A stretch of 64,000 bases of DNA from a virus. The notes below the pieces were generated by a model. That model worked only from the letters and a program-made list of their open reading frames with translations. It made no database searches and was not told the origin of the DNA. Numbering within the stretch: position 1 is the first letter of the stretch; each line of letters opens with the position of its first letter. The DNA is taken from positions 13,188-77,187 of the IMG/VR virus record IMGVR_UViG_3300040801_001687, one strand, 5' to 3'. The translations under genes and the position numbers were made by a program. Below are positions 5,039 through 48,921 of the stretch, piece by piece.

Positions 5039-5040
5039 AA

Positions 5041-7603: not shown

Positions 7604-9484
7604 ATGGCTAATAGAGTAGTAACAAATGAAACTTCCGAAAGAACTACTTACAATAACCCTATTGTAAATGGGAGGCGTATTGTTAATGGGGATATAATTA
7701 TAGATACCTTTACTAATGAAAGTAAAAACGTTATATTCTATACAGATTCTGAAACAGTGTTTTCAGGAGCTAGGTTAGGAGCTACAATTTGGATTAAAAA
7801 CCCTAATGGTAATCCTATATCAGCTTTTTGGTTAAGAACTACAGATGATTTAGAGTGGGCAATTAGTGATGTAAATAATCCAGTTGTTATAACTGCTTTA
7901 GAAGGTCAAGTTATATTTAGAAAGATACCCAATAATGATAACCCTTACAATATTAATATTACTAACCTAGCTTATGTATCTCTTTGGGGAGAGACAGAAT
8001 CCCACCCAGGTATGAGGAATGGTTGGGGTCCTTTTAAACACGGTACTTTTGGAATACAAGTTGATAGGTGGGGAAACCCTGAACCGGGTCAAAATAATTT
8101 TACAATAGGTGGAGACTTTTTAAGTGGTATAGAAGTAATAGGGGTAGAATCAATCCATGGTTTTGCTAGGTATAGAAGTGAACCCACTGCTCCAGGTTTA
8201 GAAAGTAGAAGGGTTGATTATTTTAGATTAAAGAGAAGCTTTCTTCATACTGGGGAAACAGGGGAAGGGATATATATAGGGTCTACTAAAGCTCCTCCTT
8301 ATGCATTATTTGAAAATGTATTAATTGAAGATGTTCTTTGCACTAGAGCAGCTGCAGAAGGATTTCAAATGCAACATATGGTAACTGGTTCAAGAACTGG
8401 AATTATAAGAAATACTATATGGCATGCTAATGGAGCTGATTGGAAAGCAGCCTTTCAAAACTTTCAATCAGCAGGTTTACAGTTATCCTACGATGAGGGT
8501 GATATATTATTTGAAAATTCTATTGTAGATGGTTGGGGTAGTAATGGTTTAACTTTATTTAAAGCTGATGAAGGTTTATTAGTTAATAATAAAAAAGTAA
8601 GGTTTAGGAATGTACTTTGGTTAAATGGGAGAAATAGGGGTATATATTTCAATGCCAACGATGATGCTATACCAATTGAATTTAATCAGTGTGAGTTTGG
8701 GGAGATGGTAGATAATTGGGAAGAGACTTACCCTAATGAGGTTGCAGCAGACCACCATATGGATGTAGCTAATGACATTGACCTTATTTTAAAATATTGT
8801 AAATATAGAAACAATAAAACCTTTTACACAGGAACTTATCAAGGTAATGTTAAAGAAGTTGAGAATAATGGGTTTCCAACTCAAGAGTACCCAGAGTATT
8901 TAAACTCAGACCCCATATCCCAAGATACTGAAAAATATGAGGTTTGGCATGAAGAGTATGCAGACTGGACTGTTAACCAAGGGCATGCTGCTAACACAAA
9001 AATTGAATTTAACCAAGGGGATACTGTATTTAATACCCAAGATAAAAGATTTTACAGGTGTCTAATAACTCATACAAGTTCAGCTTCAACACGACCTGAT
9101 TTAGATAATACTAATTGGTTATTACTAACTTGGGATAAAACTAATGGGGTTGCTAATGATAAACCCGGTTGGGATTTTAATAACCCACAAAGTATATACC
9201 CACCTGATGATTATAGGTTAGCTATAGGTAATACTCATAATACTTTAGGAAGGGGGTTAAGTAGTAACCCAACCCCCTACACTTTCTATAATTGGCAATA
9301 TAGTGAAGATGATGGTTCTAATAATCCCGATGGAATTTGGGTTAATATAGCGGATATAGAATCTAAAAAATTAAACTATACTCCACCTACTGGGTTGAAT
9401 AGACATTATAGGAGAGTAGTAACAGTTAAAAATACAACAGGTCAAGAAATAGAGAGTATATCAAATACTATTCAAGTTATTTAA
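7604..9484 (+). CDS. Putative virion beta-helix (pectin-lyase-like) protein with CBM5/12-like and Ig-like domains
   Basis: GEGIYIGS and AAAEGFQMQ beta-helix rungs; FNQGDTVF...YRCLITHTS...W module; C-terminal YNWQYSED...YRRVVT. Confidence 0.55.
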   Translation: MANRVVTNETSERTTYNNPIVNGRRIVNGDIIIDTFTNESKNVIFYTDSETVFSGARLGATIWIKNPNGNPISAFWLRTTDDLEWAISDVNNPVVITALEGQVIFRKIPNNDNPYNINITNLAYVSLWGETESHPGMRNGWGPFKHGTFGIQVDRWGNPEPGQNNFTIGGDFLSGIEVIGVESIHGFARYRSEPTAPGLESRRVDYFRLKRSFLHTGETGEGIYIGSTKAPPYALFENVLIEDVLCTRAAAEGFQMQHMVTGSRTGIIRNTIWHANGADWKAAFQNFQSAGLQLSYDEGDILFENSIVDGWGSNGLTLFKADEGLLVNNKKVRFRNVLWLNGRNRGIYFNANDDAIPIEFNQCEFGEMVDNWEETYPNEVAADHHMDVANDIDLILKYCKYRNNKTFYTGTYQGNVKEVENNGFPTQEYPEYLNSDPISQDTEKYEVWHEEYADWTVNQGHAANTKIEFNQGDTVFNTQDKRFYRCLITHTSSASTRPDLDNTNWLLLTWDKTNGVANDKPGWDFNNPQSIYPPDDYRLAIGNTHNTLGRGLSSNPTPYTFYNWQYSEDDGSNNPDGIWVNIADIESKKLNYTPPTGLNRHYRRVVTVKNTTGQEIESISNTIQVI

Positions 9485-9485
9485 A

Positions 9486-9497
9486 ACAATACTTAAT
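9486..9497 (+). promoter_or_regulatory. Candidate late promoter motif ACAATACTTAAT
   Basis: Exact repeat of the motif at 3681 and 9939. Confidence 0.6.
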
Positions 9498-9522
9498 ATT
9501 ATTAAAAATAAATTATATAGAT

Positions 9523-9936
9523 ATGCCAGTACTTAATGCTTTTAAAAGAAGAATGTTCGATAGCCAATTGGCTTTAGGGGATTTAAAAATGATGTTATTG
9601 GATGATAACCATTCAACAGATATAGACACTCAAGAGTTTATTGATGATATTTCTGCTAATGAGGTATCATCTTCCGGCTATACCGCAGGGGGAGTAACTT
9701 TAGCCAACCCTAATGTAGTAGTTGATAATGCTAATGACGAAGCCTCGATTGATGCTGACAATGTTTCTTTAGTGGGTATAACTGCTACCGTAAGATATCT
9801 AGCTTTCTATGTTGACACGGGAACTCCTGGTACTTCTCCTATTATAAACATCTATGATTTAACTACTAACCAAGTTTTGAATAACCAAGATTTGGATATT
9901 AATTTTGAATCTACTGGTATAATAGGTTTAGCATAA
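9523..9936 (+). CDS. Small virion structural protein
   Basis: Motif NEVSSSGYTAGGVTL, recognised from phage minor structural proteins. Confidence 0.6.
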   Translation: MPVLNAFKRRMFDSQLALGDLKMMLLDDNHSTDIDTQEFIDDISANEVSSSGYTAGGVTLANPNVVVDNANDEASIDADNVSLVGITATVRYLAFYVDTGTPGTSPIINIYDLTTNQVLNNQDLDINFESTGIIGLA

Positions 9937-29536: not shown

Positions 29537-30115
29537 ATGGAAAGTCCTTTAGAGATGGTAATTTATGGAGTAGGGGGTTTATTAAGTAAAGTAACCTTCG
29601 ATTACATAAAGAAAAAGATAAATATAAATAACTCATTTAGAAATATATTATTAGCCATAAAAGAGGTTTATGGTAATATGTCAAATTTAGCTGCAGTAAC
29701 TGGAGCTTATAGAGTAGTTATATATAAAGGGGAAAATGGAGGGGGAGTACCTAAACTGGGAAACTCTTTATACTCTTCGGCTATATATGAGATTTACAAA
29801 GATTCACCTATTAAGGTATTTTGGCAAAGACAACCAATGGATGCTAAGTATACTGAAAATCTATTGCAAGTATATTCTAATAAGTTTCTATTAATAATCA
29901 CTAGAAATCTTCCAAAATGTCAACAAAGAACTCTTTATGATGCAGAAGGGATAAGGAGAGTAGAGATGCATAAGATAAGAGTTGATAAGACCAGATTTAT
30001 ATACCTGGAATTACAATTTACAGATGAGGATGAATTAAACCCAAAAATAGAACACGTAAAAAGGGCATCTATAAATACCCTTATTAACCTATTTGATAAA
30101 AATTCTTTAGACTGA
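29537..30115 (+). CDS. Possible holin with N-terminal membrane anchor and GAF-like soluble domain (T4 T-like architecture)
   Basis: Short hydrophobic N-terminus, then GAYRVVIYKGENGG...YSSAIYE; last gene of the late operon. Confidence 0.4.
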   Translation: MESPLEMVIYGVGGLLSKVTFDYIKKKININNSFRNILLAIKEVYGNMSNLAAVTGAYRVVIYKGENGGGVPKLGNSLYSSAIYEIYKDSPIKVFWQRQPMDAKYTENLLQVYSNKFLLIITRNLPKCQQRTLYDAEGIRRVEMHKIRVDKTRFIYLELQFTDEDELNPKIEHVKRASINTLINLFDKNSLD

Positions 30116-30760
30116 TACTGGGTTTTTTCTAAAATGTTCTTGGGCTTCTAAAATCATTTGCTTTATCTCTCTTCTATAACAATTGATTATTTTAATGGAT
30201 TCTTTTGAAGTATCCATTCCAAAGAAATCGGCTATAATCTCGGAAGGAATTTTTGAGGTTGTAGCTTTATTGTGTTTGGATAATTTATTTAGTATAAATG
30301 GGGGTGGGTTTAATTCAAGTTTTAATACCTCATAAGCTTGTTCAGATAAATTATCCTTCATAAAATTCATGCAGGTATCTAAAAAGATAGAATTTTCATC
30401 TATGGGTTCATCTTCAAATTCTAATTCTTTATAACCATAGGCTTCTGATATATCTATAGTATCATTTATTTGGTTCTTTTGAGAATAGATACTTCTTAAT
30501 ATTCTTTGTTTAAAGAATTGAAGTCCCGAAATAATATGCCCTTTAAGAACCTCCTCATCATGTTTATCACAATATCTATTAAAGATAAATATTATCTTAA
30601 CATCGAACCAAGATAATATTTCCTCATAATCCACTCCTAATCTTCTACAATCAATTTGATGGGCTAATTTTCTTTTAAGAGATTGAGTATTCTTATATAT
30701 GTTCATGAATACCTCATTATTAAACTCTTCCTTCATTGGGGTTAATCTGTGCTCTTCCAT
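30107..30760 (-). CDS. Phage sigma70/ECF-like factor
   Basis: Region-2-like N-half (IYKNTQSLKRKLAH...YEEILS) and region-4-like C-half (NLSEQAYEVL...IIADFFGM); the only convincing minus-strand gene. Confidence 0.6.
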   Translation of the reverse strand: MEEHRLTPMKEEFNNEVFMNIYKNTQSLKRKLAHQIDCRRLGVDYEEILSWFDVKIIFIFNRYCDKHDEEVLKGHIISGLQFFKQRILRSIYSQKNQINDTIDISEAYGYKELEFEDEPIDENSIFLDTCMNFMKDNLSEQAYEVLKLELNPPPFILNKLSKHNKATTSKIPSEIIADFFGMDTSKESIKIINCYRREIKQMILEAQEHFRKNPVSV

Positions 30761-30799
30761 AATTTTAAAGATTTTACTATTATTAAATGATTATTTCAT

Positions 30800-30831
30800 C
30801 AAATAAAGATATAAATTTTCTAATTTCCAAA
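30800..30831 (-). promoter_or_regulatory. Bacteroidota-type host promoter for the sigma-like gene
   Basis: Minus strand reads TTTG-N20-TTTATTTG (one mismatch to TAnnTTTG); the spacer closely resembles the promoter at ~50580-50609. Confidence 0.55.
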
Positions 30832-30902
30832 TAATTTTTATAAAGTTATTGATTTTCAGTCAGTTATAAAGTTTTACTTTTATATATAAATAATATTAAA
30901 CC

Positions 30903-32321
30903 ATGAGTAATGATAAGTTTGATTTTGATATAGATTTTCAATGGCAAATAATAAAATATACTCTAAAAGATAAGTCAGGATATAAACTTCTTAGACTTTA
31001 TAAACACTCTTATTTTGAAATAGACGACCAACAAATTGTAGCCCATGCAATAGAGAGGTACTTTAGAAGAAAACAGTCAATTCCTAAATCAGCTTCTATT
31101 CTTAACCAAGAGATAAACCAATTATTTAGAACTAAAAACTATGCTAAATCCTTTCTACAACCTGATAGGGATAGAGTAAAAAGAAAAACTAAAAAATTAT
31201 ATAAGTCAGTTTTAAAAGATGCCGATGAAATTTATGAACAGTGTAAACTATTTGCATCTTATATAGAATTAAAGAAAACTTTGGAAGAGGTTGATTTAAA
31301 AGACTTCTCTAAATACTCGGGTTACTCTAAAAAAATACAGAAAGCAGTTAACATAGGAATGGAGCTTGATGATAAAAGGGGTAGCTTTATTGTATCCGGT
31401 GCAAAGACCCGAATTTTAGAAAGACATCAACAAGAAGAGACTATACCTACACCTTACCGTCAAATTAATAAACTCACTAATGCTAATGGTTATACTAAAG
31501 GAAGTATTATAGTTCTTGTAGATAAACCTAAGATGGGTAAAACCCTATCCATGGTCAATTTTGCAAGGGATTATATGAGCCGTAAGGGTAAGTATAAATC
31601 CAATAAAAAAGTTATCTACTTTGATTTAGAGAACGGTGAAACCTCAATAAATATAAGAATAGACCAAGGGGTTTTAAATAAATCTAAAAAAGATATCATA
31701 TCAGGCCAATATGATTCTCTATTAATAAAACAATATAGAAAATATAAGAGGCTTGGGGGTGAGATTTATGTTATAAGAATGCAAAATGGTTCTACTGTTA
31801 ATGATTTTCAAAAAGAACTAGACGACCTATATAATGAGTTTGGTTTAAAATTTGAAGTAGCAATAATTGATTACATCGGAATTATGGGTACCACTACTGG
31901 AAAGAAAGATGATAATGAGAGAATCAGTGATGCCTATTTAGATGTTAAGAACTGGGCTAAACAAAATGACTTAGATGCAGTTATAACGGGACACCATGTT
32001 AAAAGGGAGGGATACAAAAGAAGGTACACTAAATACAGAACAGAAGATTTAGCTAAGTGTATTGATATCGAAAGGCATGTAGACACTTTATATGGGATTC
32101 AACAAAACCCCGAAGAGTTTTCAAACAATATAATTAGATTAGAGACAATGGCCCAAAGAGATGGGTTAAACGGTAAAGCTTTATTCCATGTAAACCAATC
32201 ATATCAAAAAATAAAAGAATTTACTAAGGAGGAGATAGAAGCTTATGATGAGTTCTATAAGGATTACTCAGAGGATGAAGGAACTTCACCCAAAAGAAAA
32301 CCATCAGAAGATTTAGATTAA
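30903..32321 (+). CDS. dnaB: Replicative SF4 helicase (DnaB-like)
   Basis: KPKMGKT Walker A; YFDLE; IIDYIG. Confidence 0.88.
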   Translation: MSNDKFDFDIDFQWQIIKYTLKDKSGYKLLRLYKHSYFEIDDQQIVAHAIERYFRRKQSIPKSASILNQEINQLFRTKNYAKSFLQPDRDRVKRKTKKLYKSVLKDADEIYEQCKLFASYIELKKTLEEVDLKDFSKYSGYSKKIQKAVNIGMELDDKRGSFIVSGAKTRILERHQQEETIPTPYRQINKLTNANGYTKGSIIVLVDKPKMGKTLSMVNFARDYMSRKGKYKSNKKVIYFDLENGETSINIRIDQGVLNKSKKDIISGQYDSLLIKQYRKYKRLGGEIYVIRMQNGSTVNDFQKELDDLYNEFGLKFEVAIIDYIGIMGTTTGKKDDNERISDAYLDVKNWAKQNDLDAVITGHHVKREGYKRRYTKYRTEDLAKCIDIERHVDTLYGIQQNPEEFSNNIIRLETMAQRDGLNGKALFHVNQSYQKIKEFTKEEIEAYDEFYKDYSEDEGTSPKRKPSEDLD

Positions 32322-32322
32322 T

Positions 32323-33300
32323 ATGAAGGCATTTCAAAGAGAGACTACCGAGAAACTTACTACATACTTTATTGAGAAGCTAGAGTGTACTCCAGCATCT
32401 ACAGGTTGGCTTAGAAGAGGTACTTGCCCCTCTTGTGAAGAGAGTATGAAGTTTGGAGTTAACCTTTGGCTTAATAGAACAAATTGTTTTAAATGTGGTT
32501 ATCATCCAAAGCCCATAAACCTTCTCATGGATTTAGAAGGTTTAGAAACAATGCCCGCCTTCTATAATTTTATAGGTACTTTTGAATCCACTGATGTATT
32601 AGATAAACCTGTAGAGCTTCTACAACAGAAGTTTGGAAAATTACCGGAGAGTTATAAGCTTATAATATTTGGGGAATCGACATTCGGTAAGTTAGCTAGA
32701 AAATACATGAAAGGTAGGGGGTATGATATAGATGAACTTGCTTTAAAAGGAGTAGGTTATTGTACTAAGGGGCCCTATAAGGGTAGAATAATAACTCCTT
32801 TTTATGAAAACGGTAGAGTGGTATATTTTAATGCAAGAAAATTTATAGATGTAGGAGAGAAGCATAAAAACCCTTCAATTAATGAGTTTGGGGTTGGTAA
32901 ATCCTTATTAATATACAATGTGGATGCTTTATGGTTATACAATAGGACCTATCTAGTTGAATCCGCCACTAATGCTTTAACATTAGGGGATAGAGCAATA
33001 GCTACTGGGGGTAAAAAATTATCAAATTATCAGGTATCTAAAATAATAAAATCCCCATGTAAAGAAGTTAGTATAGTTTTAGATAAAGATGCCTGGTGGG
33101 AAGCATTACAATTAGGTTTAAAGTTATCACCCCATAAAAGGGTTAGGTTAATAGAGATGCCTGATGATAGAGATGTAAACGAGTTAGGAAAAAAGAAAAG
33201 CCTTAAGTTAATTAAGAAATCAAAAGTATTATCTTATAAAGAGATATATAAACTATTTATTAATACGGAAAAACCCGAACATTATTTACCTACAGTATGA
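32323..33300 (+). CDS. dnaG: DNA primase (zinc ribbon plus TOPRIM)
   Basis: CPSC...CFKC; YLVES; VLDKDA; DVNE. Confidence 0.85.
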   Translation: MKAFQRETTEKLTTYFIEKLECTPASTGWLRRGTCPSCEESMKFGVNLWLNRTNCFKCGYHPKPINLLMDLEGLETMPAFYNFIGTFESTDVLDKPVELLQQKFGKLPESYKLIIFGESTFGKLARKYMKGRGYDIDELALKGVGYCTKGPYKGRIITPFYENGRVVYFNARKFIDVGEKHKNPSINEFGVGKSLLIYNVDALWLYNRTYLVESATNALTLGDRAIATGGKKLSNYQVSKIIKSPCKEVSIVLDKDAWWEALQLGLKLSPHKRVRLIEMPDDRDVNELGKKKSLKLIKKSKVLSYKEIYKLFINTEKPEHYLPTV

Positions 33301-34142
33301 GGAAAGCATCAATACATATTACTTTAGATACTTTGGAATCCATATTAGATAAATGGTTCGACGGAGACACTGATACAGAAGCTCTAGTAGAGTTCATTGC
33401 TAAGAGTGGAAAGTCTAAATCACTTTCTCATAGATTGATACTAGACTCCTTAGATAAGAAAACTGAAAAGAAAGTAAAGAACACTTTAAAATACTCATCC
33501 AAATCGGACTCAGTTCTATTTGCTAACACCTTAATAAATGTTAGAAGAAAACTAAAACATAGGGGTATATCCTTAATAAAGGAATCTTCTAAAGATTGGG
33601 AATTTATAAGGCAGGGTTCAGAATTAGCATTCTCATTCTGTAAAGATTTTAACCTTTCTAAAAAAGAAGGTTTTAAAGTTTATATAGAGAATGCCTTAAG
33701 GTTAATGGTTAGATTTAACCTTAGACAATTAAACTCTAAACATGAACAGATATGTGAAAGATATGAGGCTATGGATAATATGACCAATGACCCTAATAAA
33801 GAAATAACTGAAAAGGCCTATGAAGTTTATATAGAAAGAGTTTATTCTAAAACTGGTATGGCCCCTAAATATAAAGAGAAACAGCCAGAGAAATATTTAA
33901 ACTTTATAAAAGTAGGAGCAACATGTAAGGAGTTGGGTATTAACCCAAAGGATTTTATAGTAGGTAACTTTGAATCTTTAGAATGGACCTCTTCAATCCC
34001 TATGCCTGAACAACTGGTTACAGATAATGCGGTTAACAGAGTTATCAAATGGGCTGCTGAAAATGAAGTAAGGATAGGTAAAACTTCTACTGTAGATAAA
34101 TCTAAATCATTACAAGATATACTTAAAAAAGCAAGGGGATGA
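33297..34142 (+). CDS. Hypothetical replication-module protein
   Basis: 281-aa ORF coupled by ATGA overlaps to primase and helicase. Confidence 0.6.
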   Translation: MRKASIHITLDTLESILDKWFDGDTDTEALVEFIAKSGKSKSLSHRLILDSLDKKTEKKVKNTLKYSSKSDSVLFANTLINVRRKLKHRGISLIKESSKDWEFIRQGSELAFSFCKDFNLSKKEGFKVYIENALRLMVRFNLRQLNSKHEQICERYEAMDNMTNDPNKEITEKAYEVYIERVYSKTGMAPKYKEKQPEKYLNFIKVGATCKELGINPKDFIVGNFESLEWTSSIPMPEQLVTDNAVNRVIKWAAENEVRIGKTSTVDKSKSLQDILKKARG

Positions 34143-35572: not shown

Positions 35573-35588
35573 ACTATTATCAGATATG
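35573..35588 (+). promoter_or_regulatory. ACTATT-N7-ATG candidate phage (middle) promoter
   Basis: ACTATTATCAGATATG; 15/16 identical to 41739-41754; same spacing at 38442. Confidence 0.5.
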
Positions 35589-36050
35589 AAAAGAAAAGCG
35601 AGAGATAAAGAAGTAAAAAATAAACATGATGTTTCCAAACCTATATCTATTGATATATTCGGAACAGAGGACGACCCCTGTTTCGGAAAACACTATTCTG
35701 AAAAAGCAGATGAGTGTAGTATGTGTGGAGATTCAGAATTATGTTTTATAATCAAATCTCAAAAACAACACAAGGTTAGAGAGTTTGAAGAAGAAGAGGC
35801 TAATTTTAAAGATTTGGAAGAGCCTTTCTTTAATCTAGTTAAGCTAGAGGAATATTTAATTAAGAAACTAAAACCGAATAACAAATTGTTAATTACTTCA
35901 GTTTACTCTAAAGTGAATAAAAGATTTAATAAATTGGGTCAAGTTTCAAAGAAAGAAGTTAAGTCTGCTGTATTAAAGGTAGTTAAGAACTCTAAAAAAA
36001 TAGTACTTTACAAAAATAGAGGAGTTAGAAAAATAAAACTTAAACAATGA
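35586..36050 (+). CDS. Hypothetical protein with Cys cluster (possible Zn-binding)
   Basis: PCFGKHY...ECSMCGDSELC. Confidence 0.6.
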   Translation: MKRKARDKEVKNKHDVSKPISIDIFGTEDDPCFGKHYSEKADECSMCGDSELCFIIKSQKQHKVREFEEEEANFKDLEEPFFNLVKLEEYLIKKLKPNNKLLITSVYSKVNKRFNKLGQVSKKEVKSAVLKVVKNSKKIVLYKNRGVRKIKLKQ

Positions 36051-36742
36051 GAAAACAAGATTATTTTCAAAAAGGAGAGATTACTAATGCTATTATAGAG
36101 TTATCTAAAATAAGGGTATACCAAGAAGGTAACTTAAATAGTGAGCTACGGCTTATATTAGAGGCCTTTATAAAAAAGTCAGTAAAATTTAATAACACTT
36201 ACCAAGAAGCTATTGAATTTATTAATAGTGTTAATTTTCTTGAACTGGAGAATCAGGTTAAGGTATTTAATAAGATAAAACAATTAAACCTTCAATTTAA
36301 AGCTATTATTATAGATTTATTTTCAATATTCGGTTTAACTAATAAGAACTCTGATGATTTAATAATACCTATTAAAAAACACCTAGATGGTGCAGGTATA
36401 ACTTCAACATTCTACTTCCCAGGTGATGTATTAAAAACAATGATAACCTATATTAATTACATCCAACTAAATGATGAGAGGACTAGGTTACCCAAAACAA
36501 AATTATATAAATTTGATGTGGGGGATGAACCTTTCGGATTTACTAGGTTAAGTGAAGAGGTGTTAATGATAAATAATGGTTTGTTTTTAGAAATAATTCA
36601 ATCAGTATACCTTATGATTGATAAGGAGGAGCAAGTTGTTTATAAAGAGGATTTAACTGCTGACCTATTATTTAGAATTTCAGAATTTTTAAGCTTTAAT
36701 GATTTTGATAATTTAAAACTTTATAACCTAATAAGGAAATGA
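36047..36742 (+). CDS. Hypothetical all-alpha protein, possibly a degenerate dimeric dUTPase/NTP-pyrophosphatase
   Basis: Helical character and position before the TS-like pair; no intact EExxD motif, so the function call is weak. Confidence 0.3.
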   Translation: MRKQDYFQKGEITNAIIELSKIRVYQEGNLNSELRLILEAFIKKSVKFNNTYQEAIEFINSVNFLELENQVKVFNKIKQLNLQFKAIIIDLFSIFGLTNKNSDDLIIPIKKHLDGAGITSTFYFPGDVLKTMITYINYIQLNDERTRLPKTKLYKFDVGDEPFGFTRLSEEVLMINNGLFLEIIQSVYLMIDKEEQVVYKEDLTADLLFRISEFLSFNDFDNLKLYNLIRK

Positions 36743-37662
36743 ATAAAATTACAGACAGTGATTCAGGAATAGTAACCACATTAAAATACCCTAATCTACA
36801 AAAAGGTTGGGAGGGTATTAATGAATTTCTATTTTTAGAGGCTGATAGAATAGCTGAAAATTCAGGGGGAGTCCATGGACCAGAGATGGTATCCTATAAT
36901 AATTTTGTAGTTATGGATAAAGCTTGGGTAGACCCTGAGTTTAATTTCGGAAAGGTATTAGGGTATTCAATAGCTAAATGGTCAGCCTTAGTAAATAATT
37001 ATGTAGACTTTTATTACCTTGATTTATTAAGAGCTGAAATAAGCAGAAGAGTTAAATCAAAAGCAAGAGCCTATAACTATACTTACCACTTTGATAATAA
37101 ACATGGGGGAGGTAAAGACTGCTTAGTTGCAATCACTTTTACAAAAAGGATGTTCTCAAGGCGACCAGTTGTAGTATTTCAAATAAGAACTTCTGAAGTA
37201 ACTAAAAGGTTACTCTTTGATTTCTTACTAGTACAGAGGATAACAGAGTATATTTATGGACATAATGATGTGGAAGTGCACTTTTTTGCTCCATCCTATT
37301 ATGTTACACGGGAATCATTTGTAATGTATAATAATGTAAAATCAATAAAGAAGCTTTACAAAAACCATATTAGGAAAAATGGTAAACCTTTACCTGATAA
37401 TCAGAAGTTTCAAAAGAAAGTAAAAGAAACCTTTAAAGAATACATGAACCACCCTGACCCCATGAGTGTAATGTATAGAGTTAACAGACGCTCAATGATG
37501 CAAATCCAAAAGGATGAAAATGGGGAACCTATATCAGGTGTTAAAGATTTATTTGCTAAGGATTTAAAACTTAGAGAAGAGAATGATAACTTACCTAAAG
37601 ATGTAATATCACCATCAAAGGTAAGGGGTTATAAAAGAATCCAAAAAAACAAAAAGAAATGA
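36739..37662 (+). CDS. Divergent thymidylate-synthase-fold protein A
   Basis: GKDCLVAITF (candidate catalytic Cys) and QIRTSEVTKRLLFD, which aligns with TS RSCDxxxGxxxN. Confidence 0.6.
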   Translation: MNKITDSDSGIVTTLKYPNLQKGWEGINEFLFLEADRIAENSGGVHGPEMVSYNNFVVMDKAWVDPEFNFGKVLGYSIAKWSALVNNYVDFYYLDLLRAEISRRVKSKARAYNYTYHFDNKHGGGKDCLVAITFTKRMFSRRPVVVFQIRTSEVTKRLLFDFLLVQRITEYIYGHNDVEVHFFAPSYYVTRESFVMYNNVKSIKKLYKNHIRKNGKPLPDNQKFQKKVKETFKEYMNHPDPMSVMYRVNRRSMMQIQKDENGEPISGVKDLFAKDLKLREENDNLPKDVISPSKVRGYKRIQKNKKK

Positions 37663-38429
37663 ATACTATAATAAAAAACCAACAGAAACAACTATACCAT
37701 GTTGGCCAAAAATACTCAGTAGAGAAATGGCAGGGGGTGGATTCACCTGATGATATGATTGAATTGTTAAACCAAAGGGTAGTTATAGATACTTCTTTAT
37801 TGAAAAATAAGTTAGAAGAGGAAATAAAACCCCACTTACCTTGGGCTGAACTTCAATTCCAAGAAAGGGTATCGGGTAAACCCTTAAACCCCGGTGAATC
37901 TTATAAAGAATGGCCTTTTTATAAACACAAAAAAGAGGATGATAAATTTAGAAATACAGAAGAAGGCCAATTCAGTCACACCTATATGGAGAGGTTTTGG
38001 CCAAAGCAAGCCCCCATGTTTAATGGTAGAATTAATGCAGATATAAATATAGGTATAAGGTATGGATATGGGGACCTTGATGATTTAATTCAACTACTAA
38101 TGGACCAACCCCATACAAGGCAAGCTTTCTTACCTATCTGGTTTCCCGAAGATTTAAAGGCATCAAATTTAGGTGATAGAGTTCCATGTTCATTGGGTTA
38201 TGATTTCATTATAAGAAACAATAGACTTCACATGGTTTATTATATGAGGTCATGCGATGCCCTTAGACATTTTAGAGATGATATTTATATAGCCATTAGG
38301 TTGATGCAATGGGTATGCCAAGAGTTAAATATGTTACATGACATAGATACTGGGATGTTCACTATGTATATTAAGAATTTCCACTGTTTCTATAAAGAAA
38401 GAGAAAGTTTACTATCAGATAAATTTTAA
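37659..38429 (+). CDS. Thymidylate-synthase-fold protein B (dCMP methyl/hydroxymethyl-transferase-like)
   Basis: HTRQAFLPIW, RVPCSLGY, MRSCDALRHFRDD and NFHCF motifs. Confidence 0.85.
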   Translation: MNTIIKNQQKQLYHVGQKYSVEKWQGVDSPDDMIELLNQRVVIDTSLLKNKLEEEIKPHLPWAELQFQERVSGKPLNPGESYKEWPFYKHKKEDDKFRNTEEGQFSHTYMERFWPKQAPMFNGRINADINIGIRYGYGDLDDLIQLLMDQPHTRQAFLPIWFPEDLKASNLGDRVPCSLGYDFIIRNNRLHMVYYMRSCDALRHFRDDIYIAIRLMQWVCQELNMLHDIDTGMFTMYIKNFHCFYKERESLLSDKF

Positions 38430-38454
38430 AAGGAGAGGTAGACTATTAAAAATT

Positions 38455-38895
38455 ATGGAAAGGATTAATAGAAACGAACTTAATTTAAGAATTGCCTACC
38501 TTATATCCCAAAGAGCTACTTGTCAAAGGTTGGGGGTGGGAGCAATAATCACTAGGGATAATCGAATAGTTGCAACGGGTTATAATGGACCGGTTAAAGG
38601 TTCTCCTCATTGCTCTATACTGGGATGTGATACTTCGGAACACTGCCAACATGCAGTTCATGCAGAAGCTAATGCAATTTATTTTGCAGCAAGGTATGGA
38701 GTATCACTTGAGGGGTGTACTTTATATGTAACCCATTCCCCTTGTAGAAAATGTGCAGAGGCTATAGTAAATGCAGGCATAGACTCAGTTATATATGATA
38801 TACAATTTAGGGACACCTCTTCACTTAAATTTTTAACAAGTAATGGGGTAGGAGTTTCACAACATATACTAAATAATAATGAAGAAAAGTTATAA
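38455..38895 (+). CDS. dCMP deaminase
   Basis: ATC.R..VGA, TGYNG, HAEANAI and SPCRKC motifs. Confidence 0.93.
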   Translation: MERINRNELNLRIAYLISQRATCQRLGVGAIITRDNRIVATGYNGPVKGSPHCSILGCDTSEHCQHAVHAEANAIYFAARYGVSLEGCTLYVTHSPCRKCAEAIVNAGIDSVIYDIQFRDTSSLKFLTSNGVGVSQHILNNNEEKL

Positions 38896-41107
38896 GATAG
38901 TTACAACTTTTGCTGAAATAGAAAATGTAATCAAATGGTGTCAGGAAACTAGATACTGTTCCTTTGATTATGAGACTAGAGCTCATGGACCTTTAGGACC
39001 TTCTTATAAAGGAAAGAATTCAGACAATCCCGCAGGGCCCCAATTTAAAGAAGATAAACCTACAATCCTAGGTATATCTTTTCAAATTGGGTTTGCTTAT
39101 GTAATACCCCTATTTCATTTAGAGTCACCTTTTTCTAATAGAGAGGTATTAAAGATATTCACGATGTTATCTCAAGGTATATTTGAGAATAAAGAAATAA
39201 TTAAGATAGCCCATAACTTTAAATTTGAATACAAATGGTCTACAAGATATGGTTGTAAATTCAATGGTAGAATATTTGATACCATGCTTGCTAAATATTT
39301 ATTAGATGAGGAAAGACCACATGGTCTAAAAGATTTAGTAGCTCTTAAATTTCCAGAGTATGCCGAATACGATGATGAGGTAGAGGAATGCGTAAAGAAA
39401 GGTGGGGGTTGGCATTCAGTTCCTTTAGATACTCTTTCTGAATACTGTGCATTAGATTGCGATATGACCTTAAGGCTAATGATTATACTTGAGGAGAAGC
39501 TAATGGATATGGGTTTTTATTTATTATTTAGAAACATGACTATGATGCAGACCAGGGTATTGGCTGAATCAGAAATTCAGGGTTTTATAATTGATAAGGA
39601 TTACTTATATGATTTGGAAGAGAAAGAGGCTAAGAAGATTGAGGAAACCGAAGAAGCTTTACAAGGGCATAAGAAAATTAGAAAATTCTTAAAACAAAGA
39701 AAGAAAGACCACATTAAAAAATTAATAGAGAATACTCAAGATGAGATTAGAAAGATAAGGTCAGGGGAAATTGAGTATGCTAATATAGATAGAGCAATAC
39801 AAAATAGGGAGGAGAAGGTTAGTAGATACCTAGCAGGAGAGCTAGTGACCAATAAAGAGAAAATTGAAGATAGAGTTAACTTTAATTCTACTCCTCAACT
39901 ACGAGAGTTATTATTTACATCTAAAGCAGGTTTTAAATTTGGTATAGTAAAATATACTTTAGATAAAAAGAAACAACCTACTGAAAACCCTTCAACTGAT
40001 GAAGATGTATTATTAGAACTTGAACTTAAAGATAAGTCGGGTTTTATATCTAACCTTTTAAAGCTTAGGGGTTTAAATAAGATTTATTCTACCTATATAA
40101 AAGGGCCAATGAAAAGGATAAACCATAAAGGTAGACTAAATACTGACTACCTTATACATGGAACGGTAACAGGAAGGCTATCATCAAAGAATCCAAATTT
40201 ACAAAACATTCCAAGAGGTACAACTTCTAATATAATCAAAAGGATGTTTATTCCACCTAAAGACCACCTTATTTTAGAAGTCGACTATGGACAGGCAGAA
40301 TTAAGGGTAGTGGCTGAAATATCAAATGATAAAACCATGATTGAATTATTTGATAAAGGCTATAATATTCACGTTGCTACTGCTTGTAAAGCTAATGATT
40401 GTATAGAAGATTATGACCATATAAAGAAGGTTGTACTAAAAGATGAAAACCATCCTGACAATTTATTTTGGACCAAACAAAAGAAAAGGGCTAAGGTTAT
40501 TAATTTTGGTATTATCTATGGACAGACACCTAAAATGCTTGCTGAATCACTATCATTACCTGGGGACCCGGTAACGGAAGAAGAGGCTAGACAATTTAGA
40601 GAGGAATGGTTGAACTTATACCCAGGTGTTAAGAGATGGTTTAAGAAACAAGAAAGGTTTTTAAAGAAACATGGATACGTTAAAAATATATTTGGAAGAA
40701 AGAGAAGGCTTCCAGGTATATGGGATTCTCAAATAGGAGTACAGAATAAGGCTATAAGGGATTGTATTAATGCTCCTATTCAGGGGGCTTCATCTGATAT
40801 GACCCAATTCTCATCTGTAGTTATAAGGGAGCAGGTTATAAAGAATGAAATTATAATGAGTGATTATGCTGAATTTAGAAACCAATTATACACAGTACAT
40901 GATTCACTAGGTTTTTACATACAACCTAAATATATACATACTGTAGTTCCCCAATTAAAGGCAATATGTGAGAATCCACAAACCCAAAAATACTTTGGAT
41001 TTCAAATGAAAAAAGTAAGAATGAAAGTATCAGCGGAGATAGGATTAAATTGGGGAGAATTAAAGGACTACAATAAGGAAGAAGATTACCAAAAATGGAT
41101 TAGTTAA
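38879..41107 (+). CDS. polA: Family A DNA polymerase with 3'-5' exonuclease
   Basis: FDYET, AHNFKFE, TGRLSSKNPNLQNIP, DYGQAELR, AKVINFGIIYG and VHDS motifs. Confidence 0.96.
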   Translation: MKKSYKIVTTFAEIENVIKWCQETRYCSFDYETRAHGPLGPSYKGKNSDNPAGPQFKEDKPTILGISFQIGFAYVIPLFHLESPFSNREVLKIFTMLSQGIFENKEIIKIAHNFKFEYKWSTRYGCKFNGRIFDTMLAKYLLDEERPHGLKDLVALKFPEYAEYDDEVEECVKKGGGWHSVPLDTLSEYCALDCDMTLRLMIILEEKLMDMGFYLLFRNMTMMQTRVLAESEIQGFIIDKDYLYDLEEKEAKKIEETEEALQGHKKIRKFLKQRKKDHIKKLIENTQDEIRKIRSGEIEYANIDRAIQNREEKVSRYLAGELVTNKEKIEDRVNFNSTPQLRELLFTSKAGFKFGIVKYTLDKKKQPTENPSTDEDVLLELELKDKSGFISNLLKLRGLNKIYSTYIKGPMKRINHKGRLNTDYLIHGTVTGRLSSKNPNLQNIPRGTTSNIIKRMFIPPKDHLILEVDYGQAELRVVAEISNDKTMIELFDKGYNIHVATACKANDCIEDYDHIKKVVLKDENHPDNLFWTKQKKRAKVINFGIIYGQTPKMLAESLSLPGDPVTEEEARQFREEWLNLYPGVKRWFKKQERFLKKHGYVKNIFGRKRRLPGIWDSQIGVQNKAIRDCINAPIQGASSDMTQFSSVVIREQVIKNEIIMSDYAEFRNQLYTVHDSLGFYIQPKYIHTVVPQLKAICENPQTQKYFGFQMKKVRMKVSAEIGLNWGELKDYNKEEDYQKWIS

Positions 41108-41125
41108 ACTTTAAACAATAGAAAA

Positions 41126-41737
41126 ATGAAAATTGCATTTACAGGGAGTTCAGGCTCAGGAAAGACTACACTTGCTACTTGGTTAGCAGAGGAGAAAGAT
41201 TTAACATTTATACCAGGTTCATCAGGTGGATTGAAAACTGATGAGGATAGAAAGTTTTTAAAAGAAAATTTTGGATTTGAAGGGGGTAAAGGCCATGCAA
41301 ATGTTATACAACAATCTCATATTAACCCCGAATTGGGTTACTATATCCAATCTACAGTACGTAGAAGAAGGGCTGAATTAATTAGAAACAACGATGATTT
41401 TGTAACTGACAGAAGCCCTTTAGATAATTGGGTATACTTTATATTACAAGCATCTACTTATCAGAGCCAAGAGAATTGTAATAACTTTCTTGTAAAGGTT
41501 ACAGAGATGTTTAAAGATTTGGATGCAGTTATATATGTACCTTCAATGTTTTCTAATATTGAAAACAACGGTTCAAGAGTTTCCAATGTATATTTTCAAC
41601 AAGCAGTAGATGCTTATTTTGAATTATGCTTTAGAAATTTCCAAAGAAGTTTAGCTGCTGACTATGGTACTAAATTTTTAAGGATTCCTATGGTAGACCT
41701 TCAGTTAAGAAAGGATTATATCATTAATAACCTTTAA
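41126..41737 (+). CDS. P-loop nucleoside-monophosphate kinase-like protein
   Basis: GSSGSGKTT and VTDRSPLD motifs. Confidence 0.75.
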   Translation: MKIAFTGSSGSGKTTLATWLAEEKDLTFIPGSSGGLKTDEDRKFLKENFGFEGGKGHANVIQQSHINPELGYYIQSTVRRRRAELIRNNDDFVTDRSPLDNWVYFILQASTYQSQENCNNFLVKVTEMFKDLDAVIYVPSMFSNIENNGSRVSNVYFQQAVDAYFELCFRNFQRSLAADYGTKFLRIPMVDLQLRKDYIINNL

Positions 41738-44992: not shown

Positions 44993-45484
44993 ATGGGTAA
45001 AAAATATAAAAAATTCAATCCAGTAAAAAAGGTAGCAGAGTTTCATAAGGTATCAGGTAATTCAATATTACCTAAACCAGAAATTCCTAAAGCCGAAAGG
45101 TTAAAACTAAGAGTAATACTTATTCAGGAGGAACTGGATGAATTAAAGGAGGCTATAGAACAAAACGATTTTGTTGAGATGGCTGATGCTCTTACAGATA
45201 TTCTTTATGTAACTATAGGTTCTTTCTTAGAGTTAGGGTTAGGGAAGATAACCCATAAGTTATTTAAAGAAGTTCATAGGTCTAATATGACTAAATTTTG
45301 TGATACTGAAGAACAAGCAAAGGCTCAGGTTAATTGGTATATGCAGAATAAAGGTATAGTTGCTGACTACTATGAGAAAGGGGGTAAGTGGATTCTATTT
45401 AACACTGCCACTGAAAAAACAATAAAGAGGCGGGACTATTCACGACCTGATTTAAAATCAATAATTCAAAAGGCCTCTAAATAA
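44993..45484 (+). CDS. MazG-like / PRA-PH NTP pyrophosphohydrolase
   Basis: LIQEELDEL, EMADALTDILYV and EVHRSNMTK motifs. Confidence 0.88.
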   Translation: MGKKYKKFNPVKKVAEFHKVSGNSILPKPEIPKAERLKLRVILIQEELDELKEAIEQNDFVEMADALTDILYVTIGSFLELGLGKITHKLFKEVHRSNMTKFCDTEEQAKAQVNWYMQNKGIVADYYEKGGKWILFNTATEKTIKRRDYSRPDLKSIIQKASK

Positions 45485-45515: not shown

Positions 45516-46481
45516 ATGAAAAAGAAAGTAATATTTATAGCATTTTCAGATATACAAATAGAAGATTGGAAACAATATTCCAAAGACCACTCAAGGCTTT
45601 ATGATAATGAGAAGATACTTAAAAAGATATACGAGAAGGCCGAAAAATATAAATGTCCTGTTCTATTTGGGGGTGATTTGTTTGATAATCCTTATGGCCT
45701 ATCTAACAGAGTCCTTAATGAGATGGCCAAATGGTTTAAGAAATTTAAAAGGCCGATTTATGCAATATCTGGAAACCATGACCAACAAGAGAAAAATACC
45801 TTAACTAATAAAAGCCCCACCTATATGGATTTCATGTCCATAGCTTTTGATAATTTTGTAAACTTAGATAATGGGTATCACCTATTTGCTAAAAATGAAA
45901 CTATTGTTGCTGGTATACCATATTATGCCTCCTCTAAAGATTTAATTGAGGCTATAAAGACAATGAATAAGAAATTAAAAAGAAGGCCAGAAAGAAAGAT
46001 TCTCCTATTACATACACATTTACCTGGTGCTAAAGAACCTTCTGGCCTACAATTGGAATCAGATTTACCCTCCACAATATATAGACATCTAAAAGGTTAT
46101 GATTTAGTTTTATCGGGTCACATTCATAAACCCCAAAAGATATTTAAGAACACGTTAAATATGGGAGCTACCCATAACCAAAGGACTTCAGATGAAGGGT
46201 GTAAAATGGGTTTTTGGTTAATTTATGATGATTTAACTTATAAGTTTATAGATGCTAAGGCCCCAATGTTTAAATATATAGAAGAAGATGAAGAACCCGA
46301 AGATGATTACAATTTCTATATTAGGGTATCGAAAGAAGAGGAGTATGAGGAAACAGAAGAGGTATCGGTTAATTTTAAACCAAATTCAAAACCGGAAACT
46401 CTTGCAAAAGAATACCTCAAAGCCAAAAATATAAAATCAAAGGCTAAATTAAAAACACTTAAAAAATATCTAAAACTATGA
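45516..46481 (+). CDS. sbcD: SbcD/Mre11-like metallophosphoesterase nuclease
   Basis: FSDIQ, GGDLFD, GNHD and GHIH motifs. Confidence 0.9.
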   Translation: MKKKVIFIAFSDIQIEDWKQYSKDHSRLYDNEKILKKIYEKAEKYKCPVLFGGDLFDNPYGLSNRVLNEMAKWFKKFKRPIYAISGNHDQQEKNTLTNKSPTYMDFMSIAFDNFVNLDNGYHLFAKNETIVAGIPYYASSKDLIEAIKTMNKKLKRRPERKILLLHTHLPGAKEPSGLQLESDLPSTIYRHLKGYDLVLSGHIHKPQKIFKNTLNMGATHNQRTSDEGCKMGFWLIYDDLTYKFIDAKAPMFKYIEEDEEPEDDYNFYIRVSKEEEYEETEEVSVNFKPNSKPETLAKEYLKAKNIKSKAKLKTLKKYLKL

Positions 46482-48346
46482 TAAAGTTTAAAGAGATAGA
46501 AGTTATCGGGTTTGGTTCAATCAAAGGACCTTTTAAATACCGATTAGATAAAAAGGGAATCAATATTATATCAGGTAAAAATGGTTCGGGAAAGACTACT
46601 TGGTTATCAGCTTTTTCATGGTGCTTATTTGGAAAAACTTTAAAAGGAGGCTCATCCATTACCATGTGGGAGCACCTAAGAGATAAGGGTTATAAAGGAG
46701 CTAAGGTAACTAATACTTTCCAGGCCAATGGAAAAGAGTGTATAGTTATTAGGTGTAAAGATTATAAAGGAAAAATAGAGAATATAAAAGGAGCCTCTAA
46801 GTTATTTCTTTACATTGATGGAAAATACCAAGAGAAGTTAAGAAATGTTAAAGATGTACAAGATAAAATAATAGAGTTACTGGGTATGAGTTTTAAATTA
46901 TTTAAGAACTCTATTTTATTTGGTCAAAAGGTTACTAGGTTATTATCTGAAAAAGGTGATGAGCAAAAAAGGATATTTGATGAGGCATTTGCTACTGGAT
47001 TTATTAATCAGGCTAAAATAGATGCTAAAAATGAATTGGATAAACTATACTCTGAAAGCTCTTCATTGGCTGTAGAAGTGAATCAATTAGAGGATAAACT
47101 TTCTGAACTAAATAATAAGGAAGAGGAGCTAAGAGAACTCCAAAAGAATTTTACTATAGAGAAACAGGAAAACCTTAAATCTATAAGAGAAGAAATAAAA
47201 ACCAAGAAAGAAAAAATAAAAGAGGTAAAAAATCAAATAAAAGAAAAGAAAGAATTTAAGGCTAAAAGAGTAGAAGTAGAAAATAAATTAATAGAACTTT
47301 TTAAAAAAATTGATAGCCTTAAAGATGAAGAAAATGAACACTTTAAATTAGACCTACATATTGATGGCCAAAAATCTGAAATAGAATCATTAATGGTTAA
47401 ATTAAAAAAGGAGCAGGCCAAATCTTTAAATAAGGTTAAGAAATGTGATAAGTGTGGCTCTGTATTAAATAAAGAGCAGGCCAAAAAACAAAAGAAAGAA
47501 ACTCAAAAAAATATTAAAGATTATAAAAAAGAAATAGAAACTTTACAATCCAAGTTAAATGGGGATGAGTTAAGGCTATCAGAGTTACAATCTAGTATAG
47601 ATAATTTAGAATCACTAAAGAAAGAGAAGAGAGATTTATCCAATAAACTAGATAATGTAAATAGGCATATAGATAAACTACCTTCTAAAGATTATCTTAA
47701 ATCTTTAAAAGAAGATTTATCAAACACCAAAGAGAGGTTAAAATTAGAAAAGGGAAGAGAGTTTAGCTATGATTTCACTAAATTACATAAAGAAAGGGAT
47801 GTTATAAAAAACAAACTTAAAAAATTAGAACCCGATGTTAAAAAACTTGATAAAAAAATAAAGGTACATGAATGGGTAATATCTGATGCATTGTCTAATA
47901 AGGGTCTAAAGGCATATATATTTAAAAATATGATTACTAATATAAATAAAATGCTACGATACTATGACAGACATTTGGGTTTTCAGGTTAAATTTGAAAT
48001 AGACCTAGATTCAGGTAATAAATCATTTGGAGCATCCATTTATAAAGAAGGGGGTCAAGTTAGTTATGATGATTTATCAGGTGGCCAACAACAATTAGTA
48101 GATGTATCATTAGCATTTGCAGTGAATGATGTATATAATGAGGTTAATCCAGTTAATATATTGGGTTTAGATGAATTATTTGAATCATTGGATGAATCTA
48201 ATATTGCCATAGTTTCAGATATACTCTACAAAAAATCTCAAAATTTAGCTATACACCTTATCACACATAGAAAGGAATTTATATCTTCAAGAGTGGTTAA
48301 TAAAATCGAAATGGTTAATAGCAGTGGTATATCCAGTGTTGTCTAA
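46478..48346 (+). CDS. sbcC: SbcC/Rad50-like ATPase
   Basis: GKNGSGKT, coiled coil with CDKC hook, LSGGQ, LDE and ITH. Confidence 0.92.
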   Translation: MIKFKEIEVIGFGSIKGPFKYRLDKKGINIISGKNGSGKTTWLSAFSWCLFGKTLKGGSSITMWEHLRDKGYKGAKVTNTFQANGKECIVIRCKDYKGKIENIKGASKLFLYIDGKYQEKLRNVKDVQDKIIELLGMSFKLFKNSILFGQKVTRLLSEKGDEQKRIFDEAFATGFINQAKIDAKNELDKLYSESSSLAVEVNQLEDKLSELNNKEEELRELQKNFTIEKQENLKSIREEIKTKKEKIKEVKNQIKEKKEFKAKRVEVENKLIELFKKIDSLKDEENEHFKLDLHIDGQKSEIESLMVKLKKEQAKSLNKVKKCDKCGSVLNKEQAKKQKKETQKNIKDYKKEIETLQSKLNGDELRLSELQSSIDNLESLKKEKRDLSNKLDNVNRHIDKLPSKDYLKSLKEDLSNTKERLKLEKGREFSYDFTKLHKERDVIKNKLKKLEPDVKKLDKKIKVHEWVISDALSNKGLKAYIFKNMITNINKMLRYYDRHLGFQVKFEIDLDSGNKSFGASIYKEGGQVSYDDLSGGQQQLVDVSLAFAVNDVYNEVNPVNILGLDELFESLDESNIAIVSDILYKKSQNLAIHLITHRKEFISSRVVNKIEMVNSSGISSVV

Positions 48347-48375: not shown

Positions 48376-48921
48376 ATGGCGATTAACCAAAGAAGAAAAG
48401 GTAAAAAAGGAGAACAGAAGGCTATAAACTTCTTTAAACAATGGACTGGGATGGATTTTAAAAAATCCCCAGCTTCAGGGGGATTAAGAGGTCACGTTGT
48501 GGAATATACGGTAGGAGATATTATATGCGTAGAAAAGAATTATGTATTTCCTATATCTGTAGAATGTAAATTTTATGCCGATATAAACTTTGCTCATCTC
48601 CTATATGATGTAAATTCTGAAATTTTTAAATATTGGGACCAATGCCTGGAAGATGCAGAGAGAGCTGAAAAATTCCCCTTACTTATGATGAGATATAATC
48701 GCCTTCCCGCTGACTTCTTCTTTATTGTGATGCTTTACAAAGACTACAGGTTATTAAAAGATAAAGGCCTTAGAATAAGGGGTAGAAGGTTTTTAGTTCA
48801 TAACCCCGAAGGAGGAAACCTATTAATAACTAACACAGAAGAACTAGAGAAGTTAAATTGGAAGAGAGTTGAAAAAGTTTTAATGAAAAACCTAAAAAAG
48901 AGATGGCAAAAGAACCGATAG
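48376..48921 (+). CDS. Holliday junction resolvase (PD-(D/E)xK, Hjc-like)
   Basis: KGKKGE, SPASGG, GDI, VECK and WDQC motifs. Confidence 0.8.
   Translation: MAINQRRKGKKGEQKAINFFKQWTGMDFKKSPASGGLRGHVVEYTVGDIICVEKNYVFPISVECKFYADINFAHLLYDVNSEIFKYWDQCLEDAERAEKFPLLMMRYNRLPADFFFIVMLYKDYRLLKDKGLRIRGRRFLVHNPEGGNLLITNTEELEKLNWKRVEKVLMKNLKKRWQKNR

Follow-up and report, generated by a model that had tools for sequence, protein, structure and literature searches.

Why does a phage carry two adjacent genes for proteins of the thymidylate synthase (TS) fold, and what do the two proteins make? This question is raised by genes A and B in IMG/VR virus record IMGVR_UViG_3300040801_001687, of which we analysed a stretch of 64,000 nucleotides (bases 13188-77187 of the single contig), called the window below. 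An initial annotation, made from the letters of the window alone, had proposed that A and B form either a heterodimer or a two-step pathway producing a C5-modified deoxycytidine monophosphate (dCMP). We established the folds of the two proteins, their conserved residues, the coupling of the genes and the content of the cassette around them; the phage probably makes an altered cytosine building block.

The source contig is 77,187 bp long, with a 117-bp terminal overlap and a CheckV completeness of 100%, and all searches described as genome-level cover this complete 77-kb genome. The G + C content is about 32%. Three sequencing runs, all from one microbial-mat study, contain the stretch as contigs, and no RNA run is listed among the runs that contain it.

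Fold and active-site residues of proteins A and B

Protein B matched the TS profile PF00303 with an E value of 4.7e-9 and 36.2 bits, above the curated cut-off of 24.3, and its best sequence match in the PDB is the CMP hydroxymethylase MilA. Its structural model, with a predicted local distance difference test score (pLDDT) of 86.4, superposes on ThyA with a Z score of about 20 and a root-mean-square deviation of 2.7 Å over about 214 residues. The model spans only residues 1-221 of E. coli ThyA, the C-terminal segment being missing. Only B residues ~137-253 align to TS profiles, and the N-terminal half has a large conserved insertion.

Active-site residues of B were mapped by alignment to E. 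coli ThyA, T4 gp42 and MilA. The B motif RSCDALRHFRDD aligns with RSCDVFLGLPFN of the E. coli enzyme, which places D208 on Asn177, so that the Asp claimed for this site in the initial annotation is found in B by direct alignment. C177, R197 and D200, the counterparts of the catalytic Cys146, Arg166 and Asp169, are invariant in a 40-sequence alignment, as is D208; in a wider set, 76 of 77 B sequences have Asp at the position of D208. R174 and C177 do not vary in the B family, and position 178 is Thr or Ser throughout. The exchange of Asn177 for Asp switches TS from deoxyuridine monophosphate (dUMP) to dCMP (PMC8670742), and position 147 differs between modified and unmodified contigs (PMC8670742). 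Judged from its residues, B thus bears the hallmarks of a cytosine-type enzyme, Asp at 177 and Thr/Ser at 147.

Where a canonical TS has Asn177, His147, Leu143 and a C-terminal segment, B has Asp, Ser, Arg and a shortened end. It is therefore very improbable in our judgement that B serves ordinary metabolism as the TS of the phage, acting on dUMP from the deaminase and the MazG-like dUTPase of the cassette, with only canonical bases in the DNA. Depositors did label B homologues thymidylate synthase, the deaminase and the MazG-like hydrolase (related to DR2231) both give dUMP, and a DNA C5-methyltransferase of this phage, described below, suits unmodified cytosine. There is also no other TS: in the complete genome PF00303 matched B only, with no ThyA, and a profile search gave no match to ThyX, so that the absence of a canonical ThyA first noted for the window extends to the whole genome. 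However, almost every member of the B family has Asp at 177 and Thr/Ser at 147, the former being the very exchange that turns the enzyme from dUMP to dCMP (PMC8670742). B lacks the C-terminal segment of ThyA, and a dihydrofolate reductase (DHFR) profile found no match in the complete genome. Furthermore, Microbacterium phage Triscuit has a canonical ThyA-like TS (gp67, 5777-6574) immediately after its B gene (gp66), the A-like gene being gp64; as it carries a canonical TS besides the pair, the pair is not simply a deoxythymidine monophosphate (dTMP) synthase there.

Two published rules bear on the reaction type: Asp169 to Asn marks flavin hydroxylases, and Leu143 versus Asp/Glu tracks a methyl versus a hydroxymethyl product (PMC13326640). 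Since B keeps Asp169 (as D200; A has E153), it is not a flavin-type hydroxylase, for which the Asn is diagnostic. The invariant Arg of B at 143 fits neither published class, methyl or hydroxymethyl. B also has none of the features of the enzyme of phage XP12, that is, full-length ThyA architecture, a C-terminal closing segment and coupling to DHFR. The C-terminus of TS closes the active site for hydride transfer. In view of this role, of the missing C-terminal segment, which is likewise missing in T4 gp42, and of a genome without DHFR, we favour a hydroxymethyl product with moderate confidence; B itself is probably a dCMP C5 one-carbon transferase.

Protein A, alone or as a family profile, had no sequence match in Pfam, NCBIfam or the PDB, and its only PHROG match was phrog_34294, of unknown function. 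Its AlphaFold model (pLDDT 91.9) has the TS fold. The top Foldseek matches of this model were MilA, T4 dCMP hydroxymethylase and AfhB; VIA-align gave Z scores of 13.8 for AfhB, 12.2 for MilA and about 10 for ThyA, with 396 chains at Z of 8 or above, and all 50 entries shown belong to the TS family. The A family comprises 113 cluster representatives without a Pfam domain, and Pfam scans of ten distant and ten longer relatives revealed no bridging or fused domain. A represents a new family of a fold that is already known. Two coupled TS-fold open reading frames (ORFs) had been claimed from the start: B is confirmed by PF00303 and its model and A by a confident model together with Foldseek and VIA-align, and the ends of the two genes overlap in ATGA.

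Among 79 representatives of the A family, 19-51% identical to A, residues K80, Y88, C128, R150 and D161 never vary, and E153 is Glu in 77. Profile-profile comparison of A with B aligned C128, R150, E153 and D161 with C177, R197, D200 and D208, at E 0.0011 over 191 columns with broad alignments and at a non-significant probability of 0.4% with narrow ones. These equivalences come from profile register and invariance and not from superposed coordinates. By this register A has the nucleophile Cys and the phosphate Arg in place, Leu at the 147 site, Gly125 at the 143 site and Asp at the 177 site, and D161 would be the equivalent of the Asn177 to Asp exchange. The residues first picked out in A hold up to this extent: a candidate nucleophile is invariant in both proteins (C177 in B, C128 in A), the Asp at 177 is supported in A by register and invariance, Glu stands at the TS Asp169 site, and the phosphate-binding Arg pair is lacking, no Arg being conserved at the loop (Arg104 occurs in 28 of 79).

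The invariance also bears on whether A is an enzyme at all. As a non-catalytic regulator or scaffold, A would bind a cytosine nucleotide and tune B, or tether it to the replisome, leaving B as the only enzyme. Such a role would be consistent with the absence of any TS profile match, with a long basic C-terminal extension that TS does not have, and with fast evolution, a BLAST search from one lineage missing the others. We nevertheless consider it quite improbable. No change in the Cys, Arg or Asp is seen even at 19% identity, nor in the A-like proteins of cultured phages, which is the pattern expected of catalysis. This constancy across very divergent sequences argues for A being a candidate enzyme that is catalytically active on a cytosine 5′-monophosphate, and not a binder only.

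Distribution of the two families and dependence of A on B

A family profile of A found 453 relatives in IMG/VR, and gene coupling was counted in the best 80 loci. B directly follows A in all 77 testable loci; the remaining 3 of the 80 end at A. The conserved order is UvsW, small Cys-rich protein, A, B, PolA, UvsY and gp32, sometimes with a deaminase between B and PolA and sometimes with a kinase between PolA and UvsY.

Full-length relatives of B with 36-43% identity occur in about 100 cultured phages, and matches to the B family were found in 131 phage records and more than 2,000 metagenomic proteins. Eight cultured lineages were sampled, namely Yersinia phage P744, Gordonia phage Elinal, Brevundimonas phage Strzyga, Mycobacterium phage FF47, Streptomyces phage KimJongPhill, Clostridium phage P21, Microbacterium phage Triscuit and Pseudomonas phage PMBT14. 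In all eight an A-like gene of 250-350 aa, mostly annotated as hypothetical, immediately precedes B, except that a small ORF lies between the two in Triscuit. A broad A profile matched the A-like proteins of P21 (2.5e-41) and P744 (1e-14) strongly and those of the actinophages weakly (2e-6 to 8e-5, in a small search space); for PMBT14 there is, in addition to the profile match, a structural match to the A model (E 6e-9). Every one of these proteins keeps the Cys, Arg and Asp. The cassette of the cultured phages consists of a kinase, a dUTPase or MazG, the A-like protein, B, dCMP deaminase and PolA; the paper on P744 makes no mention of DNA modification. In the human-gut phage MT121964.1 two tandem A paralogues (7968-8957 and 8950-9735) are followed by B, giving three consecutive TS-fold genes.

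When the search was started from the B profile, an A-like gene was found beside B in only 29 of 76 testable viral loci, the other 47 having no detectable A. These B-only loci often lie on contigs of 100-434 kb, and the genes around B are unrelated ones, among them those for a metallophosphoesterase, methyltransferases and a nuclease. In three complete jumbo-phage genomes carrying B the broad A profile had no match, although very divergent A-like genes could escape it; as a positive control, the same profile found A in 5 of 5 genomes. The 42 conserved positions of B are identical with or without A, and the active-site residues are the same. The co-occurrence across phages that had been suggested as a check thus runs in one direction: B follows A in every testable locus, and an A-like gene precedes B in every sampled cultured lineage, but B is often found without A. 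B is self-sufficient, and A is a dependent add-on that occurs only where B does.

On one 118-kb viral contig with B and without A, the gene that comes immediately after B (4763-6304, + strand) encodes a 513-aa protein with an FkbM methyltransferase and a GT34 glycosyltransferase. We treat this as a lead, hinting that a hydroxyl on the product of B may be decorated.

TS-fold enzymes are dimers that share Arg126′/Arg127′ across the interface. A and B might accordingly form an obligate heterodimer with shared active sites, A giving or borrowing phosphate-binding residues, and the lack of a conserved Arg pair in A, where a Lys aligns with Arg154 of B, would agree with this. So would the overlap of the two genes, which recurs as a 4-base overlap in Elinal, Strzyga and KimJongPhill (three of seven cultured pairs examined). 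Four-base overlaps are, however, common in this genome, and an unrelated ORF upstream of A overlaps it in the same way. B does without A in the 47 loci and three jumbo genomes above, and its conserved positions do not change with the presence of A. A complex prediction of B with A, each with its own alignment, scored 0.00 in both runs, which were made without controls, and carries no weight either way on binding. We regard an obligate heterodimer as improbable. Of the two arrangements initially proposed, the heterodimer is thus disfavoured by the many loci in which B stands alone, and the second step fits better: a one-way dependence, in which A needs B and not the reverse, points to A using or diversifying the product of B.

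The gene cassette and a proposed pyrimidine pathway

The features of the cassette are listed in Table 1. The region first assigned to the system (36047-41737) holds the pair and its cassette, as stated, except for its first 700 bases (36047-36742), which are an unrelated, lineage-specific ORF. This ORF lies between the small Cys-rich protein and A with a 4-base overlap to each neighbour, and has no homologue in 80 related loci, where the order is UvsW, small protein, A, B. The small protein carries CFGK...CSMCGDSELC, and the sole lead to its family is a weak NCBIfam match to DpdI (E 0.007). A homologue is found upstream of A in most of the best 80 viral loci, where it stands between the UvsW-like helicase and A, and also in MT121964.

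Table 1. Features of the A/B locus and its surroundings (window positions)
Feature	Position	Strand	Evidence and remarks
Small Cys-rich protein, 154 aa, function unknown	35586-36050	+	No Pfam or PHROG family
Lineage-specific ORF, 231 aa, not TS-fold	36047-36742	+	No family match
Protein A, divergent TS-fold enzyme (candidate), 307 aa, basic C-terminal tail	36739-37662	+	Model, Foldseek, VIA-align
A Cys128, candidate nucleophile	37120-37122	+	TS Cys146 position; invariant 79/79; aligned to B Cys177; codon checked
A motif RTSEVTKRLLFD	37186-37221	+	R150 (TS Arg166), E153 (TS Asp169), D161 (TS Asn177), by register
Protein B, short cytosine-type TS homologue, 256 aa	37659-38429	+	PF00303, phrog_160
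B active-site strand RVPCS	38178-38192	+	R174 at Leu143 site, C177 nucleophile, S178 at His147 site
B motif RSCDALRHFRDD	38247-38282	+	R197 = TS Arg166; D200 = TS Asp169, kept; D208 = TS Asn177, changed to Asp
dCMP deaminase, zinc-dependent	38455-38895	+	PF00383 5e-24, PF14437 8.5e-20, phrog_174 6e-50
Family A DNA polymerase with 3′-5′ exonuclease domain	38879-41107	+	PF00476 1e-80, PF01612 2e-17
P-loop kinase-like protein, candidate deoxynucleoside monophosphate (dNMP) kinase	41126-41737	+	AAA_28 8.6e-8, weak dNK, phrog_2107 'thymidylate kinase' 5e-12
MazG/PRA-PH-type all-alpha NTP pyrophosphohydrolase, candidate dCTPase/dUTPase	44993-45484	+	PF01503 9e-16
Mre11-like metallophosphoesterase and SbcC/Rad50-like ATPase	45516-48346		After the MazG-like gene
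PD-(D/E)XK nuclease	48376-48921		After the Mre11/Rad50-like pair

The neighbours first named, dCMP deaminase, PolA, a kinase and a MazG-like enzyme, are all present; for the P-loop protein, which has no solved relative by sequence, the assignment as dNMP kinase is weak. The deaminase is present in 4 of 5 complete or near-complete relatives. The closest solved relative of the MazG-like protein is DR2231 (5e-10), and the protein is homologous to the NTP pyrophosphohydrolase whose gene immediately precedes the A-like/B pair in Brevundimonas phage Strzyga. The cassette lies in a T4-style replication and recombination module with DnaB-like helicase, primase, UvsW, PolA, UvsY-like, gp32-like, RecA/UvsX, flap endonuclease and Mre11/Rad50-like genes. 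The Mre11-like and SbcC/Rad50-like genes and the PD-(D/E)XK nuclease after them are nothing unusual in a recombination module of this T4-like type. For the 742-aa polymerase here, the UDG-fused PolA family known from T-modified phages (PMC13697223) was considered and is not applicable. TET/JBP profiles had no match in the genome.

The reading that we tentatively favour, while giving it somewhat less than an even chance, has B at the centre of a T4-like pre-replicative pyrimidine pathway in which A is a second enzyme, dependent on B. We infer its substrates, products and order of steps as follows. The MazG-like hydrolase would convert dCTP (and dUTP) to the monophosphates. Cys177 of B would attack C6 of dCMP while Asp208 reads the cytosine, and B would move a one-carbon unit from methylene-tetrahydrofolate to C5; the intermediate would most likely be trapped by water to yield 5-hydroxymethyl-dCMP. 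Phosphorylation of this product to the triphosphate would fall to the P-loop kinase and host enzymes, and its incorporation to the phage PolA, while the dCMP deaminase would supply dUMP to the host TS. A would bind a cytosine 5′-monophosphate via Cys128, Arg150 and Asp161. It would most likely act on the product of B, or on dCMP alongside B, to yield a further or different C5 derivative, since it occurs only where B does.

Several observations weigh against this pathway. A gp42-type hydroxymethylase has an acidic residue at the 143 site, where B has the invariant Arg174. No glycosyltransferase or other post-replicative modifier was found in the genome, which extends to the whole genome what had been noted for the window. 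Outside the window (genome positions 7649-8641, + strand), adjoining an amidase, lies a gene for a DNA C5-cytosine methyltransferase of 330 aa (PF00145, E 1e-20) with the motifs CGGNG, PDC and ENL, PC and ENx being intact. A PF00145 homologue is present in 5 of 5 complete or near-complete relatives carrying A and B, and a C5 group other than methyl on every cytosine would leave this methyltransferase without a substrate. The residue equivalences of A rest on a weak profile alignment, and its use of folate is doubtful because the Glu equivalent to Asp169 is replaced by Tyr in the actinophage A-like proteins, in which the Cys, Arg and Asp are retained. Finally, a natural fusion of B with a deaminase, given below, fits sequential action better than two competing uses of dCMP.

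The methyltransferase and the fusion both fit an alternative, raised already in the initial annotation, that we consider unlikely, in which B modifies C5 of dCMP and the deaminase converts the product to dTMP (if the group is methyl) or to 5-hydroxymethyl-dUMP, leaving C5 of the DNA cytosines free. The pathway would then be a dUMP-free synthesis of thymidylate or a replacement of thymine. B adjoins the deaminase here and in most cultured carriers, and the 409-aa protein P0219 is a natural fusion of a B-family domain (RDD motif) with a C-terminal dCMP deaminase domain, which hints that the two enzymes act sequentially or as a complex. The conservation of a DNA C5-methyltransferase implies that there are cytosines whose C5 is unoccupied, and no TS is encoded by the phage itself. 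For XP12, 'a new thymidylate biosynthesis' stands in the title of a paper from 1982 that PMC8543423 lists. On the other hand, one complete relative and the majority of the 16-kb loci surrounding the pair lack the deaminase, A is left unexplained, and MetaGPA tied the domain set of this cassette to fully modified cytosine and not to thymine. No thymidine-hypermodification genes were seen in the ORFs scanned.

A more far-reaching variant keeps the product of B in cytosine, with A founding a folate-independent branch of the TS fold that acts on it to make a new hypermodified cytosine at the nucleotide level. After addition of Cys128 to C6 of 5-hydroxymethyl-dCMP, loss of water would regenerate the exocyclic methylene intermediate, to be captured by some nucleophile that is neither water nor hydride. 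We think it rather improbable that this is what A does. If it were true, there would be a new base in more than 100 cultured phages of Actinobacteria, Proteobacteria and Clostridia, none of them suspected of having modified DNA.

Whether a phage genome is open to restriction enzymes, CRISPR nucleases and sequencing chemistries is decided by its base modifications, and the enzymes that make such modifications are already laboratory tools. No paper describing family A or the A/B pair was found in the literature. No curated profile detects family A, which nevertheless retains a catalytic set of the TS type and always has B alongside; family B is a widespread cytosine-type TS branch that breaks the published methylase/hydroxymethylase rule. 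Among the carriers of the pair are phages of Gordonia, Mycobacterium, Streptomyces, Serratia, Pseudomonas, Yersinia and Clostridium that are easy to grow. Should the pair make a modified base, the description of many phages annotated with a 'thymidylate synthase' is wrong, which bears on phage therapy candidates and on host-range prediction.

Comparison with known systems

At the level of Pfam domains the window resembles the contigs enriched for fully modified cytosine in MetaGPA, on which PF00303 with Asp177, PF01503, PF00383 and PF14437 co-occur (PMC8670742). The window has exactly this set; MetaGPA, which worked with Pfam domains, could not have shown family A. The carbamoyltransferase, a characterised MetaGPA partner, is absent here. 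Xanthomonas phage Xp15 carries genes that match the carbamoyloxymethyl-cytosine cluster of MetaGPA (30076-33499, - strand), with a gp42-type TS homologue having Asp at both 143 and 177, a dCMP deaminase, a Nol-like carbamoyltransferase and ThyX. Its TS homologue, gp36, does not belong to family B; at the 143 site it has Asp, where B has Arg174. The hypothetical protein gp40 beside the Xp15 carbamoyltransferase was compared with A and is not A-like.

The flavin-dependent 5-hydroxy-dCMP synthases (RB69 gp48, DLP3 gp80 and HY126 AfhB; 9iqu, 9iqc) share with A and B a short cytosine-type TS fold. AfhB is the best structural match of A by a small margin over MilA (Z 13.8 and 12.2) and for B it scores level with ThyA chains in the group of best matches (Z 19.6-19.7). 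The exchange of Asp169 for Asn that marks these enzymes (PMC13326640) is absent, B having Asp200 and A Glu153. In sequence, MilA (5b6d, 5jnh) matches B better than any other PDB entry does (E 4e-8 with the family profile), and it ranked first in the Foldseek search with A; it has Asp at 177 and Thr at 147. It differs in acting on a ribonucleotide in antibiotic synthesis, in its Asp at 143 and in its greater length, and is not an enzyme of a phage replication module.

To our knowledge, the XP12 enzyme is the only nucleotide-level dCMP methylase. Like the present phage, XP12 (MT664984) has a TS homologue with Asp at 177 and a dCMP deaminase directly after it, and its cytosine is modified at the nucleotide level, as the initial annotation had pointed out. 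For B the analogy proves weak. The XP12 enzyme is full-length and ThyA-like (Arg21, the Arg126-Arg127 pair, GLPYD and the C-terminal segment) and is encoded next to a DHFR gene, whereas B is short like gp42 and without these features, its phage has no DHFR, and no A-like gene is annotated beside the XP12 enzyme. B therefore resembles the T4 dCMP hydroxymethylase more than the XP12 dCMP methylase.

In T4, gp56 is the dCTPase/dUTPase, gp42 the dCMP hydroxymethylase, gp1 the dNMP kinase and cd the dCMP deaminase, and the same set of activities lies beside the polymerase here. Common to B and gp42 are the nucleophile Cys, Asp at 177, Thr/Ser at 147, the retained Asp169, a shortened C-terminus and a side chain at the Leu143 site that is polar in both, although it is Arg in B and Asp in gp42. 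What sets B apart is the large insertion conserved in its N-terminal half. Nothing in T4 corresponds to A, and the present phage, in which no glucosyltransferase was found, belongs to a lineage with a DNA C5-methyltransferase. The cassette is a variant of the T4 scheme.

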